Source: Alphaproteobacteria bacterium
Lineage (GTDB): Bacteria > Pseudomonadota > Alphaproteobacteria > RF32 > CAG-239
Direction of reading: 5' to 3'
Assembly (NCBI GenBank): GCA_017480745.1
Contig: JAFUSA010000031.1
Span: 13,792 to 77,791 of the forward strand
DNA: 64,000 nucleotides
The notes under the pieces were generated by a model. It saw only the letters and a list, made by a program, of their open reading frames with translations, was not told the DNA's origin and did no database searches. Position numbers and translations under genes: made by a program. This document shows positions 17,954-63,682 of this stretch, in pieces (the stretch's first letter is position 1; every line of letters starts with the position of its first letter).

Positions 17954-19648
17954 TTATTCCTCATCGTTATAATTGTTAAAACTTTCCGCGCTAAATTCAG
18001 CTGGATTTTCATCTTCTGCCGCTTCAACGCTTTTGTGAATTATTGTTTCTATTTTAGCTCCGTTAAATTCATCCAGTATAGCTTTTACTAACGGATATTC
18101 AGAGATATTTTTGCAATTTTGCTCTAAATCCTTGCGCTCCAAAAACGCCAAAGTTTCACCAAGCGGCTCATAGTCTATATTTATTTTCCATTCTGTGCCG
18201 GTTTCTTTTTGCAAAAACTTGCGCAAGTTGGCAATTAAATCTTTTGGAGCATTCAATGATAATGATATGCTCATTTCGCCATGACTAAACGAGTGAAACG
18301 ACATATCATTTTTCAGCGAAAAACATAACAATGGCTGACGGTTTGCCGTTAAAAGCTTAACCAAATCTTCCGGAGTTTGCAAAACAATATTTTTTTCTGC
18401 CGAATCAGCAATAATTTCCGTTGCGTCACCTGATACATCAATTTTTACAGACGCATTATTCAGTCCGGATTTTTTTTTTAATTCCTTCAGCAATTCTGCA
18501 GGACTCGGAAGACTGGCGGAATAGGCTATGCGTAGCAGTATCATTTCCAGCGCATCTATCTGCACTGTGGCATATTGCAGCTCACTAAGCCCCTTTATCA
18601 GCATTTGCCAAATTTTAGAGAGAATATTTATCGGCACGGCGTTAAGTTTTTTACACATTTCGCGATCAGTTTCGCTCAAAGACGAATCGCCCATAAAATC
18701 CGGTAAAATTTTCACTTTTGCCACTAAGTGGGTTATATCAATCATATCCTGCAAAACCAAAAGCGGTGATGCCCCGTTTTCATATAAGATGTGCAAATTT
18801 TGCAACACTGCGGCAATATCGCCTTCTAACAATTTTTCATACAAAGCAAAAGTTTGCTGTCTGTCGGCTAAACCAAGCATATTTTTAACGGTTGCATAAT
18901 CAATTTTTCCATTTCCCAAAACAATGGCTTGATCAAGCATCGAAAGCCCGTCACGAGCCGAACCGTCCGCCGCGCGAGCAACACTGTGCAAAGCTTGTTC
19001 GTCGGCACTTATATTTTCTGCCAGCAAAATTTTATTAAACAGATTCATCAAAGTTTCAATGCTCAAACGTTGCAAATCAAAACGTTGACAACGCGACAAA
19101 ATAGTTACCGGAACCTTGCGAATTTCAGTAGTAGCAAAAATAAACTTAACATGTGCCGGCGGCTCTTCCAAAGTTTTAAGCAAGGCATTAAACGCACTCT
19201 TGGAAAGCATGTGAACTTCATCGATTATATAAACTTTATAGCGTGCATTAGTTGGTTTATAGCGCACACCGTCCAAAATTTCGCGCATATCATCGACACC
19301 GGTTTTGGAAGCAGCATCTAATTCAATAACATCAATATGTCTTCCGGCGGCAATGGCTTTGCAATTTTCACACACTCCGCATGGATGAATGGTCGGACCT
19401 CCGTTACCATCCGCGCCCAAACAATTTATGGCACGTGCAATCAAGCGCGCTGTGGTTGTTTTGCCAACTCCGCGAATTCCGGTCAATATATAAGCATGGT
19501 GCAAGCGATTGTTTTGAATGGCATTCGTAAGTGTTTGCACCAAAGCATCCTGCCCCAGCAGATCCTCAAAGTTCTGCGGGCGATATTTGCGAGCTAACGC
19601 GATATATTGATTTTCCGTTTCTGCCATTTTTTCAATCTGTTTTAACAT
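17954..19648 (-). CDS. dnaX: DNA polymerase III subunits gamma/tau (start may be ATG at 19627)
   Basis: LARKYRP, GIRGVGKTT, IDEVHMLS and TILSRCQRF motifs. Confidence 0.97.
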   Translation of the reverse strand: MLKQIEKMAETENQYIALARKYRPQNFEDLLGQDALVQTLTNAIQNNRLHHAYILTGIRGVGKTTTARLIARAINCLGADGNGGPTIHPCGVCENCKAIAAGRHIDVIELDAASKTGVDDMREILDGVRYKPTNARYKVYIIDEVHMLSKSAFNALLKTLEEPPAHVKFIFATTEIRKVPVTILSRCQRFDLQRLSIETLMNLFNKILLAENISADEQALHSVARAADGSARDGLSMLDQAIVLGNGKIDYATVKNMLGLADRQQTFALYEKLLEGDIAAVLQNLHILYENGASPLLVLQDMIDITHLVAKVKILPDFMGDSSLSETDREMCKKLNAVPINILSKIWQMLIKGLSELQYATVQIDALEMILLRIAYSASLPSPAELLKELKKKSGLNNASVKIDVSGDATEIIADSAEKNIVLQTPEDLVKLLTANRQPLLCFSLKNDMSFHSFSHGEMSISLSLNAPKDLIANLRKFLQKETGTEWKINIDYEPLGETLAFLERKDLEQNCKNISEYPLVKAILDEFNGAKIETIIHKSVEAAEDENPAEFSAESFNNYNDEE

Positions 19649-19650
19649 GG

Positions 19651-19738
19651 TGGAGAGACCCAGACCCTGACATTATCGTTACGGCTGCTTTCTTCCGAAC
19701 CTGACCGGATTGGCGACTTTTCAACCCTGAGCCCTCCA
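19651..19738 (-). ncRNA. ffs: Signal recognition particle 4.5S RNA
   Basis: Minus-strand hairpin TGGAGGGCTCAG...CTGGGTCTCTCCA with domain IV motif GTCAGGTTCGGAAGAAAGCAGC; upstream of dnaX as usual. Confidence 0.92.
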
Positions 19739-19866
19739 AACACAGGTATCGCGCAAAAACACCCTAATTGCAAGCAAAAAAGCAGATTATTGCACATCAA
19801 AAAATCTTCAATTTTCCGATAAATTTTAAAAATCACAACAAAAAAAGAGGGCGAACCCTCTTAAAG

Positions 19867-19955
19867 TGGCGGAACGTATAGGACTCGAACCTATGCATCC
19901 TTTTAACGGGATGACGGATTAGCAATCCGCTGCATTACCACTCTGCCAACGTTCC
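19867..19955 (-). tRNA. tRNA-Ser (GCT)
   Basis: Acceptor GGAACGT/ACGTTCC-G-CCA, anticodon arm GCGGA-TTGCTAA-TCCGT, long variable arm, GGTTCGAGTCC T arm. Confidence 0.96.
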
Positions 19956-43608: not shown

Positions 43609-43749
43609 ATCCTTCTAAAAATTTCAACTGTTCGTAATCTACAATTATTTTTCCTCGCTTGCAACACACAAAAAATTACAGCTTTGTAACAATTTCCGTT
43701 TATATTGCACTCTTGTTGCCAAATATCTTGCTGATTTTACAAAAATCGT

Positions 43750-43777
43750 TTGACTTTTTAATTTTTTGTGATAGTAT
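43750..43777 (+). promoter_or_regulatory. Promoter of pilin leader A
   Basis: TTGACT (43750-43755), 16-nt spacer ending TGA, TAGTAT (43772-43777). Confidence 0.7.
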
Positions 43778-43784
43778 TCCAGAT

Positions 43785-43979
43785 AGAACTTCGGTTCGAG
43801 GGCTTTGAACAGCTCTTAGGTTTTCGGTGCTTTTGCATCGTTATAAGAATGTAATATATCTCCGATTGGGTCGGGGAGTCTCTAACGGATGTTCAGGAAC
43901 TTTGTTCTAAAGGTTAGGGGAATCACTAAAACCTATGATTGTTCAACTCTCCCGACCGCTGTTTAGTGGTCAATTTTTT
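43785..43979 (+). ncRNA. Pilin leader RNA, copy A (candidate riboswitch/attenuator)
   Basis: Homologous to 59407-59605 and 63450-63647 with compensatory changes in the helices; ends in terminator GACCGCU/AGUGGUC-AAUUUUUU. Confidence 0.85.
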
Positions 43980-44013
43980 ATTGTGTTAATACTTAATTTT
44001 AGGAGATAGAATT

Positions 44014-44640
44014 ATGAAAAACTTAAATGTAAAAAATCAAAACGGGCGCTCAATGATTGAGATGCTGGGTGTTCTTGCTATCATCGGTGTTTTATCGGTT
44101 GGCGGAATCGCGGGATACAGCAAGGCGATGATGAAATATAGAATCAATAAAACCATTGAGCAGATAACGTTAATTGCCGGTAATGTGAGAACATTTTTTG
44201 CTATGCAAAGGGATTATGAAGGACTTGATTCAAGCACAGATGATGGTAGGAAAATAATTCAAAAAGCCAAACTTGTGCCCGATGAAATGTGGAATGAAGC
44301 CGGAAACGGTTTGGTAAATGCGTTTGGAGATATGTTTTATGTAAATGCAACAGGAAAGTCGGCAGAGGATTCTTATGGTAATAGAGCGTTTCAAATTCAA
44401 CTGCATGAAATACCAGAAGAAGCCTGCATTGAGTTATTATCGCATGATTGGCAAGCCAGCGGTATGGTAGCTATATATACAGATACCAGTTCCAAAGGAG
44501 AAGTAATTGCTAAGGTTCCGCTCAGTGTTGAGGCGGCAACCAACTTCTGTGCCGATAATAGTGGCGATGATAAAGACACTCTTTTTATGTTTGATATAGA
44601 CTGGAACAGGTGGTCTGACGGACTTTACATTTATGAATAA
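44014..44640 (+). CDS. Type IV pilin-like protein (pilin 3)
   Basis: G/RSMIEMLGVLAIIGVLSVGG, KAKLVPDEM, IPEEACIELLSHDW; AGGAG SD. Confidence 0.88.
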   Translation: MKNLNVKNQNGRSMIEMLGVLAIIGVLSVGGIAGYSKAMMKYRINKTIEQITLIAGNVRTFFAMQRDYEGLDSSTDDGRKIIQKAKLVPDEMWNEAGNGLVNAFGDMFYVNATGKSAEDSYGNRAFQIQLHEIPEEACIELLSHDWQASGMVAIYTDTSSKGEVIAKVPLSVEAATNFCADNSGDDKDTLFMFDIDWNRWSDGLYIYE

Positions 44641-59372: not shown

Positions 59373-59400
59373 TTGACTTTTACTTTTTTTATGGTATAGT
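59373..59400 (+). promoter_or_regulatory. Promoter of pilin leader B
   Basis: TTGACT (59373-59378), 16-nt spacer ending TGG, TATAGT (59395-59400). Confidence 0.72.
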
Positions 59401-59406
59401 GAAGTC

Positions 59407-59605
59407 AGAACTTCGGTTCGGAGCTCTCAAAAGCTCTTATTAAGGTTGGCATCAAAAGATGTCATTAGTAAATGTGATAATATCTCCGATTTGGGTTGGG
59501 GAGTCTGTAACGGATGTTCAGAGCATTTGCTTAAAGGTTATGGAAATCATTTGCCTTAATATGATTTTTGAGCTCTCCCGACCGCCATTTAGCGGTCAAT
59601 TTTTT
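59407..59605 (+). ncRNA. Pilin leader RNA, copy B (candidate riboswitch/attenuator)
   Basis: Starts AGAAC-UUCG-GUUC; pseudoknots CUCAAA/UUUGAG and UAUUAAGGU/GCCUUAAUA; terminator GACCGC/GCGGUC-AAUUUUUU. Confidence 0.85.
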
Positions 59606-59639
59606 AATGTGTTAACCTCTGAATTTAGGAGATAAAATT

Positions 59640-60281
59640 ATGAAAAAATGTAATTTAAAAAATAATGATTATCTCTCCCCTTGCGGGAGAGAGAGCCAGT
59701 CCGGACGTTCAATGATTGAGATGTTGGGCGTTTTAGCTATCATTGGCGTGCTTTCTGTTGGCGGAATCGCAGGATACAGCAAAGCAATGATGAAGTATCG
59801 TATTAACAAAACCATTGAGCAGATAACCCTCATTGCCGGTAACATAAGAACATTTTTTGCTCCACAAGGAAATTATGCCGGTCTGGATAATGAAAAAGTA
59901 ATCCGAAAGGCCAAACTTATACCTGAAGAAATGATAGAGTATTATGTTGAAGGACCAGGTATTTCAATTGACTATGAAGGCACAATAAAATCCATAATAA
60001 ATCCGTTTGATGGCGCATTTATTATTCATACAGAAGAAGATTATAGAGCGTTTGGTTTTTCGTTAACAAACATACCGGAAGAAGCCTGTATAGAACTTCT
60101 AAGCAATGATTGGACTGAATTGAATGTAACGCATTTTTGCCACTCAGGTCCTCCTGTATGTATTACGCCGAAAGCAGATTTTGATAAAATACTGACCTTG
60201 TGTGAAAAAGCAAAAGATAGCTATTTGTTTCTTTTCTTTGAATTAAAAAATGAATTACCCGGCGATGGAAGCTGGTTATGA
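59640..60281 (+). CDS. Type IV pilin-like protein (pilin 4)
   Basis: G/RSMIEMLGVLAIIGVLSVGG, KAKLIPEEM, IPEEACIELLSNDW. Confidence 0.88.
   Translation: MKKCNLKNNDYLSPCGRESQSGRSMIEMLGVLAIIGVLSVGGIAGYSKAMMKYRINKTIEQITLIAGNIRTFFAPQGNYAGLDNEKVIRKAKLIPEEMIEYYVEGPGISIDYEGTIKSIINPFDGAFIIHTEEDYRAFGFSLTNIPEEACIELLSNDWTELNVTHFCHSGPPVCITPKADFDKILTLCEKAKDSYLFLFFELKNELPGDGSWL
59672..59692. repeat. REP-like GC-rich palindrome inside the prepilin leader peptide
   Basis: TCTCTCCC-CTTGC-GGGAGAGA; a degenerate copy in the opposite gene-relative orientation lies at 27981-28003. Confidence 0.65.
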
Positions 60282-63449: not shown

Positions 63450-63647
63450 AGAACTTCGGTTCGGGGCCTTAGAAAGCTCTTACTACATTCGGTGTTCGAC
63501 ACCGTAACTATATATGATTAAATATCTCCGACTTGGGTTGGGGAGTCGTTAGTGGATGTTCAGGGGCTTTGCCCTAAAGATTAGCGAGATCATTTAATGT
63601 AGTATGATTTTCTAACTCCCCTGCCGCCGTTTGGCGGTCAATTTTTT
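63450..63647 (+). ncRNA. Pilin leader RNA, copy C (candidate riboswitch/attenuator)
   Basis: Starts AGAAC-UUCG-GUUC; pseudoknots UUAGAA/UUCUAA and UACUACAUU/AAUGUAGUA; terminator GCCGCC/GGCGGU-CAAUUUUUU. Confidence 0.85.
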
Positions 63648-63682
63648 AGTGTAAAATAACCTATTAACAGAGGAGATAAATT

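Follow-up and report, generated by a model that had tools for sequence, protein, structure and literature searches.

This study concerns an RNA leader of about 190 nt that stands before a type IVb-like pilin gene in a 64,000-nt stretch of DNA, here called the window, from an alphaproteobacterial genome (assembly GCA_017480745.1, contig JAFUSA010000031.1). Comparative sequence analysis makes it probable, at roughly 70%, that this element is a 5′ mRNA leader acting in cis as a conformational, riboswitch-like ON switch with a putative effector. Three copies had been proposed from inspection of the window alone (the sequence-only reading), namely leaders A (43785-43979), B (59407-59605) and C (63450-63647), and these positions are correct. 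In the alignment of the three the mean column identity is 82%, and the 14-mer found at the 5′ end of the leaders occurs 3 times in the window compared with 0.27 expected.

In the mechanism that we propose, a near-consensus promoter would place the transcription start 7-8 nt downstream of itself. The RNA can fold into the helices P1, P2 and P3 and, after them, a three-way junction made up of P5-P6 and P7, with a helix between two strands, b and c, as its closing stem. This fold is locked by two pseudoknots (PK), PK1 between the P2-P3 linker and the P7 loop and PK2 between the P2 loop and the strand before c, and by a lone pair, 43804-43921. If b is paired instead with a, a mimic of c, then c would be free to complete the stem of an intrinsic terminator or, in a GC-rich relative, would cover the ribosome-binding site. 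The local a:b hairpin would form first during transcription and cause premature termination (OFF); the completed pseudoknotted fold would pull c onto b, remove part of the terminator and permit read-through into the surface-protein gene (ON). The balance would be shifted by some effector or condition: a protein, a small molecule, or folding that depends on ions or on rate. The predicted elements of leader A and its surroundings are as follows.

43750..43777, + strand: promoter of leader A found by consensus scan, with -35 box TTGACT, a 16-nt spacer and the TG-extended -10 box TAGTAT
43785..43797, + strand: 5′ end and P1 hairpin, 43786-43789 with 43794-43797 around a UUCG loop
43798..43816, + strand: P2 hairpin, 43800-43803 with 43812-43815 plus 43798 with 43816; the loop, 43805-43810, is the PK2 5′ strand
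43804, + strand: 5′ base of the lone long-range pair, partner 43921 (mutual-information rank 22)
43805..43810, + strand: PK2 5′ strand, partner 43941-43946
43817..43824, + strand: PK1 5′ strand, partner 43928-43935
43825..43840, + strand: P3 hairpin
43859..43865, + strand: strand a, the mimic of c, pairing locally with b in the proposed OFF state; this hairpin is also chosen by RNAalifold
43869..43878, + strand: strand b, the switching strand, partner a or c; bases 43871-43877 have both partners
43879-43886 with 43913-43920, + strand: P5
43887-43895 and 43909-43912, + strand: conserved internal loop between P5 and P6
43896-43900 with 43904-43908, + strand: P6
43921..43940, + strand: P7 element, 43922-43925 with 43936-43939; the loop carries the PK1 3′ strand, 43928-43935
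43941..43946, + strand: PK2 3′ strand, with c directly after it
43947..43957, + strand: strand c, pairing with b in the proposed ON state and overlapping the 5′ arm of the terminator
43954..43979, + strand: intrinsic terminator A, stem 43954-43971 and U-run 43974-43979
44001..44640, + strand: Shine-Dalgarno (SD) sequence and type IVb-like pilin gene A, ATG at 44014

A consensus scan assigned a TG-extended sigma-70-type promoter and an intrinsic-terminator-like hairpin with a T-run to leaders A and B. The promoters end at 43777 (A) and 59400 (B), and the leaders therefore begin 7-8 nt past the -10 box; the sequence-only reading had rightly positioned the start by this box but had given the spacing as 6-7 nt. 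The promoter arrangement of leader A is also kept in the upstream flanks of other copies. The 3′ end had likewise been given the right coordinate, shortly before the pilin SD sequence, but that the U-run of a terminator finishes there had been overlooked.

Covariation of the fold within one genome

An nhmmer profile of the three leaders gave 93 matches in the host genome (1.598 Mb in 34 contigs, 98.9% complete), of which 83 are near full length. The remaining type-1 matches (as the leaders described here are called, to set them apart from a second subtype presented below) comprise about 10 partial fragments consisting of 5′ or 3′ halves only, e.g. C12:10858-10986, C29:188467-188554, C4:28123-28207 and C1:43927-44074, which may be decayed copies. 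In most of the 83 copies listed, an SD sequence follows the leader by about 15-25 nt.

The 83 copies were aligned with MAFFT without structural guidance, and mutual information with average-product correction was computed over all column pairs. The top 24 column pairs were all canonical and recovered PK1, PK2, P5, P6, P3 and the lone pair 43804-43921, so that the covariation first claimed for three copies is present in the larger alignment. Over the 58 proposed pairs (4737 cells in the 83 copies), 98.1% of cells were paired compared with 82.0% in shuffles, and double changes were seen in 811 cells compared with 214, a number that none of 500 shuffles reached. In a control in which the partners were slid by 1-3 columns, 37-47% of cells were paired.

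Every pair of the two pseudoknots showed double changes (PK1 9/9, PK2 6/6), as did 8/8 pairs of P5, 5/6 of P3 and 4/5 of P6. PK1 was fully paired in 72 of the 83 copies when each strand was combined with its own partner compared with 0.28% of non-own combinations, and PK2 in 79 of 83 compared with 6.0%; 82 of the 83 PK1 strands are distinct. P1, taken as invariant in the sequence-only reading, is 100% paired in all 83 copies. The closing pair of P2 proposed there, 43804-43811, did not hold up: it is canonical in 33% of the copies, and 43804 covaries instead with 43921, the pair being CG in 55 copies, UA in 23, UG in 4 and other in 1.

Across the helices, G:U cells (721) far exceeded A:C cells (28), which indicates that pairing is selected on the RNA of the + strand. 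Together with the excess of pairing over shuffles, this bears out the earlier proposal of a compact RNA under structural selection. G:U pairs are unevenly spread among the helices (0/498 cells in PK2, 27/734 in PK1, 121/664 in P5 and 114/415 in P2), and PK1 and PK2 therefore avoid wobble pairs. The internal loop GGAUGUUCA/AAAG between P5 and P6, described as invariant, does not vary among A, B and C and is almost invariant in the set of 83. At its base, positions 43887 and 43912 covary in a non-canonical manner (GG 74, AA 9; mutual-information rank 25), which suggests a specific non-Watson-Crick pair.

Conservation in related genomes

Related genomes were searched with a covariance model, R1, built from the 83 copies, and the RNA was found there too; the per-genome numbers of matches are lower bounds. 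In a sample of 41 relatives 22 had matches, including two other families of the same class, and within the order the model matched 135 of 151 genomes (134/149 of the same family, in 18 of 20 genera). The window sequence itself is present in ruminant gut metagenome runs. Two pilin homologues with 40-44% identity, from an alphaproteobacterial metagenome-assembled genome (MAG; L126 and L127), had no match to R1, the sole model searched, in 1.5 kb of upstream flank.

The structure is 96.7% paired in 59 matches from relatives compared with 80.6% in shuffles, and double changes occur in 4/4 pairs of P1, 5/5 of P2 and 2/4 of P7, all these values coming from an alignment fitted to the model. The statement that the helices covary thus holds within the host genome for P3, P5 and P6, but P2 and P7 have their support in the relatives. 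PK1 of 7 bp or more was found in 50 of 55 sequences from relatives compared with 6.6% of non-own combinations, PK2 of 6 bp or more in 55 of 55 compared with 16.5%, and the lone pair was UA in 25, CG in 25 and other in 1. Relatives keep the architecture, with insertions in the P1 loop, P3 and P6.

A third pseudoknot, PK3, is supported in relatives between an enlarged P3 loop and bases just 5′ of, and overlapping, strand a. Pairing of 7 bp or more was present in 58% of 55 sequences compared with 14.5% of non-own combinations, after 4 of the 59 sequences had been dropped for failure of the anchor. In the ON fold PK3 would keep a off b. P3 loops are short in the host's type-1 copies.

Other variations were noted at the ends of the element. 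In many relatives (L128-L167 and others) the promoter and P1 are separated by an additional hairpin, P0; others, like the host genome, start directly at P1. At loci L195-L205 of G048 the matches to R1 are weak and short (about 130-135 nt, E-values of 1e-6 to 1e-9), some covering model positions 80-175 only; these may be further subtypes or truncated copies.

Sequence divergence of the copies

As a proxy for neutral divergence we used 11 fourfold-degenerate sites in an invariant 27-residue block of 73 pilin genes. Their mean pairwise identity is 0.47, composition alone predicting 0.29, and the paralogues are therefore old. For leader columns the corresponding values are 0.76 for unpaired positions, 0.59 for PK2, 0.51 for P5 and 0.44 for PK1. 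Judged from these identities, the unpaired nucleotides of the leader are under purifying selection, and the pseudoknot helices need only complementarity, the diversity of PK1 being as expected from neutral drift with compensation.

The age of the copies also bears on whether the element could be a repeat acting at the DNA level, such as a mobile promoter cassette or a recombination site, with its inverted repeats functioning in DNA. More than 150 dispersed copies in 1.6 Mb would suit such a repeat. The fourfold sites of the adjoining gene argue against recent spread, however, as do the selection of pairing on one strand (G:U compared with A:C cells) and the finding that no terminal repeats or transposase context were seen, and we regard this explanation as extremely improbable.

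The variability of PK1 raises another idea, namely that it serves as an address by which single leaders are opened or closed in trans, either by an RNA specific to the gene or by the leader that terminated at another copy. If so, only one or a few of the more than 150 pilins or surface-family members would be displayed, which would amount to RNA-based antigenic or phase variation, and the two leader subtypes would be two independently controlled sets. This is decidedly unlikely, as divergence of PK1 at about the neutral rate explains its diversity without any address function. A barcode under diversifying selection on PK1 was likewise rejected as needless, the identity of PK1 equalling the neutral proxy (0.44 compared with 0.47).

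A second leader subtype

Among the occurrences of the pilin N-terminal motif in the host genome (see below), 87 lack a type-1 leader, and 77 of these align as having a second leader, although at least 2 of the 77 are not real when inspected by eye. This type-2 leader has another primary sequence and is found ahead of pilin genes in about 75 copies. Its layout is that of type 1, with pairing between the P2 loop and the strand before c, pairing between the linker and the P7 loop, a set of a, b and c strands and a terminator. In 40 copies, 97.7% of cells were paired compared with 85.1% in shuffles, with double changes in 5/5 pairs of PK2 and 6/6 of PK1. A model of type 2 (R2) had matches in 140 of the 151 genomes of the order and in 20/20 genera, and only two of the 151 genomes lack both subtypes. 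In same-genus relatives, type-2 leaders stand before pilins at 6 of 9 loci examined. One copy is located in the window:

28263-28032, - strand: type-2 leader before another pilin gene, ATG at 28034-28032

Strands a, b and c and the expression platforms

The case for switching comes from strand b, the same bases of which are used in two helices. In the 83 copies the local a:b hairpin is 97.4% paired and the b:c helix 95.6%, and the terminator stem that c overlaps is 92.6% paired, with a loop-closing pair that is CG in 57 copies and UA in 16. Three-way changes were analysed in 142 sequences, i.e. the 83 copies and the 59 from relatives. Ten of these have a U in b, with the matching A in a in 10/10 and in c in 9/10; these ten sequences carry the commonest variant of a in 8 cases and the commonest variant of c in 7. 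A second three-way change is found in 5 sequences of G027, from another family, where a change in b is matched in both a and c. Both alternative partners thus stay complementary to b, as one would expect if the RNA switched conformation in a regulated way. Since b has two exclusive, covarying partners, one of which removes part of the terminator when it pairs, the leader probably has a cis-regulatory role.

The expression platform is kept in relatives but differs among lineages. In 51 of 56 matches from the same family and G027 the hairpin is followed, at a distance of up to 25 nt, by at least four consecutive Ts. The three copies of G029, from another family, have a leader GC content of 0.59-0.65 and no terminator; a ribosome-binding site of the GGGGAG type there follows c by the start codon, and the minimum free energy fold pairs c with this site in 3/3. 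In both designs, termination and SD sequestration, the b:c helix would be expected to correspond to expression ON.

By rough calculation with nested folds, the OFF state is more stable than the ON state by 3.4 kcal/mol on average and in 74 of 83 copies; when the duplex energies of PK1 and PK2 are added, in an equally rough manner, ON is favoured in 81 of 83. We infer that this pattern fits a kinetic choice made during transcription.

The same energies could be read in favour of a constitutive structural 5′ untranslated region (UTR), in which the fold stabilizes or insulates the mRNA and a, b and c merely mark a folding pathway without sensing. The ON fold with pseudoknots is the one computed as more stable in nearly all copies, P1 forms a stable hairpin at the extreme 5′ end, and the genes downstream have no common pathway. 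A passive element would, however, need neither the terminator or SD-sequestering hairpin that is kept beside the fold across lineages (51/56 and 3/3, respectively) nor the mimic a, which covaries with b and c. These features weigh against a purely structural role, which we think unlikely.

Genes downstream of the leader

The N-terminal motif of the pilins occurs 167 times in the 1.6-Mb host genome, and 80 of these occurrences have a type-1 leader within 400 nt upstream. The paralogues combine a nearly invariant N-terminal helix with divergent C-terminal parts, in an extreme expansion of type IVb-like pilins, and their genes are scattered among housekeeping genes. The downstream pilin matches the Pfam families PilS (PF08805; E-value 5.8e-12, 46.3 bits for a cut-off of 22) and Bundlin (PF05307; 1.4e-11, 45.2 bits for a cut-off of 22.3); the N_methyl domain scores 17.8 bits, under its cut-off of 21.2. 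A Peptidase_A24 prepilin peptidase and T2SSE secretion ATPases are encoded in the genome. Many pre-pilins have long modular N-terminal extensions of 20-70 residues ahead of the conserved cleavage-site region; the modules are few, recurring and shuffled among paralogues, e.g. in G000 at C5:53402(-), C23:15095(-) and C29:23150(+).

In relatives the leader is found mostly before other genes. Only 1 of the 59 matches is followed by a pilin-like open reading frame (ORF), as judged by eye, so that of the earlier proposal, a cis-regulator of pilin expression, the cis-regulatory part is likely to stand and the restriction to pilins does not. Genes downstream encode family-2 and DXD glycosyltransferases, an RgpF-like protein, XRE-type regulators, a BspA-type leucine-rich repeat (LRR) protein, an outer-membrane (OMP/Opacity-like) barrel, lipoproteins and methyltransferases. 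The sister species G020 has at least 35 leader copies, and of 14 loci examined (L178-L204) at least 8 were judged by eye to lie ahead of genes for secreted proteins of one family, which have their N-terminus in common. A related protein of another species (L153) matches the BspA-type LRR_5 domain, the G020 proteins themselves not having been scanned. The common theme is surface-exposed, variable and often multi-copy gene products.

Such a gene set invites comparison with protein-dependent attenuators of the LicT/SacY, PyrR or NusG-paralogue kind, in which an RNA-binding or antitermination protein sets the level of read-through. This would be a sub-case of the switch proposed here. Surface and accessory gene sets are typically controlled by regulators rather than by metabolites, as in the RfaH and UpxY systems, and the heterogeneous set downstream of the leader is of that type. 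The XRE-type regulators among the downstream genes, and a topology kept by two sequence subtypes, also point towards a protein. Against it, NusG is represented in the genome by the housekeeping protein alone, the analysis yielded no candidate for the RNA-binding protein, and the size of the element and its three pseudoknots would be more typical of ligand-binding or self-contained folds. On balance we consider control by a protein doubtful, if still credible.

Effector candidates and transcription

A domain search of the host genome gave one GGDEF protein, one RelA/SpoT and one NusG, and no DAC domain. Cyclic di-GMP (c-di-GMP) is unlikely as the ligand because the RNA occurs in genomes without a GGDEF match: within genus g22 such a match is lacking in 12 of the 19 genomes, these 12 being 96-100% complete and all having R1 or R2 matches. 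Cyclic di-AMP is unlikely in the host genome, which has no DAC domain, and a mechanism involving a NusG paralogue is disfavoured with only the housekeeping NusG present. RelA_SpoT is present, and ppGpp is neither supported nor excluded.

Transcription data consisted of assembled contigs from four runs recorded as RNA, one of which gave nothing, and parts without coverage are uninformative. Within leader B, 59426-59594 is matched by a contig of 169 nt that has a single mismatch, and a contig from one paralogue extends from the leader core through the terminator region to the start of the pilin gene.

The short contig is confined to leader B, as would be expected if the element were an independent small RNA gene, acting in trans or as part of a ribonucleoprotein, with downstream expression arising from incidental read-through; its ends, though, lie in sequence common to the paralogues. 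The leader's own promoter and terminator would also fit such a gene. We nevertheless consider it very unlikely: most of the 83 copies and 59 relatives' matches listed have an ORF in the same orientation a short way downstream, no space for a further promoter was seen, and the RNA of G029 extends into the ribosome-binding site.

Several observations weigh against a regulated, pseudoknotted switch and temper the probability given above. The 83 copies are paralogues, and the shuffle tests therefore overstate significance. Within the host genome P2 and P7 barely covary (double changes in 0/5 and 1/4 pairs, respectively), and RNAalifold, which cannot form pseudoknots, fuses PK2 and PK1 into one nested helix, although the bridge in this fused helix consists of four pairs that never covary. 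We accept the pseudoknot topology because P2 and P7 show double changes in relatives; it thus rests on an alignment that was fitted to the model and leans towards it. PK3 gives no signal in the type-1 copies of the host (complementarity of 5.2 for own compared with 5.4 for non-own combinations). The energy sums leave out loop and tertiary terms, and some terminators have poor U-runs. The genes controlled have no metabolic pathway in common, which is unusual for metabolite riboswitches. Finally, the contigs from RNA libraries end in sequence common to the copies and could derive from DNA carry-over, making them a weak hint of transcription.

Relation to known regulatory RNAs

As the sequence-only reading had anticipated, the leader has no match in Rfam 15. 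This applies to the whole window at gathering thresholds, to 43700-44050 at E-values up to 10 (with the c-di-GMP-I/II, T-box and ribozyme models included) and to eight loci from relatives at E-values up to 1. Searches of full-text literature, together with look-ups of terms in PMC8040213 and bioRxiv 10.64898/2026.09.15.751765, turned up no description of the leader, and catalogues of motif surveys in supplementary files may list it.

Some of the traits seen here would also suit a ribozyme that cleaves itself, or an element for RNA processing, within the 5′ UTR. Small ribozymes typically have compact multi-pseudoknot folds and occur in many copies ahead of unrelated genes, as does this leader. 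It nonetheless matches no ribozyme model of Rfam in 43700-44050, exceeds the small ribozymes in size, and has terminator and SD alternatives that suggest switching. A ribozyme is accordingly scarcely probable, marginally less so than a small RNA gene.

The proposed switch shares with terminating riboswitches a 5′ leader, a covarying fold, a strand common to the closing helix and the terminator, and an expression platform that differs by lineage between termination and SD sequestration. It departs from them in lacking an Rfam match, in a regulon of surface-protein multigene families without a pathway, and in an exceptional copy number (83 plus about 75 in 1.6 Mb). Riboswitches for c-di-GMP control type IV pilin and adhesin genes, pilA1 of Clostridioides difficile being a case, and they resemble the leader as pseudoknotted elements gating a pilin gene and in the theme of surface and adhesion; neither class, however, was matched by the covariance scan, and the leader differs from them in size and in the arrangement of its helices.

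EAR and put RNAs, RfaH/ops and the UpxY systems of Bacteroides are likewise leader elements that decide on read-through for polysaccharide, pilus and other surface genes, but their action is processive, on terminators further downstream, or depends on a NusG paralogue, whereas the present leader has its own adjacent terminator and a competing helix, and no Rfam match. Attenuators of the T-box type are similar in having three tiers, here a as anti-antiterminator, b:c as antiterminator, and the terminator; yet no T-box model matched, and the sensing domain would be a multi-pseudoknot fold. Unlike classical attenuators the leader has no conserved leader peptide, ORFs of at least 50 codons amounting to one (58 amino acids) in leader B and none in A and C.

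What sets the element apart appears to be the combination of three pseudoknots with a lone tertiary pair, the two subtypes of the same topology, and more than 150 copies before surface-protein families in one small genome. If our interpretation is right, this would be a large uncatalogued class of structured regulatory RNA, represented hundreds to thousands of times among uncultured gut Alphaproteobacteria, that fronts genes of the cell surface (pilins, outer-membrane and LRR proteins, lipoproteins and glycosyltransferases). Orphan riboswitch candidates are a source of newly found signalling molecules, and this one, which comes in two subtypes and with two different expression platforms, would be well defined. 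The control of very large surface-protein families would become directly testable in a group without genetics. With 142 type-1 sequences and the type-2 set, covariation should permit high-confidence three-dimensional modelling of the multi-pseudoknot fold.

Other features of the window

The units of leaders B and C, with their genes, are arranged as follows.

59373..60281, + strand: whole unit of leader B with promoter and pilin gene
59373-59400: promoter of leader B found by consensus scan, TTGACT, 16 nt and TATAGT ending at 59400
59407-59611, + strand: leader B, terminator stem 59580-59597
59640-60281, + strand: pilin gene B
63450-63653, + strand: leader C, with a promoter region from 63415
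63683 to the window end (64000), + strand: start of pilin gene C

Elsewhere in the window, a tRNA and a small signal recognition particle RNA adjoin at 19645-19955 on the - strand and are its sole Rfam matches.

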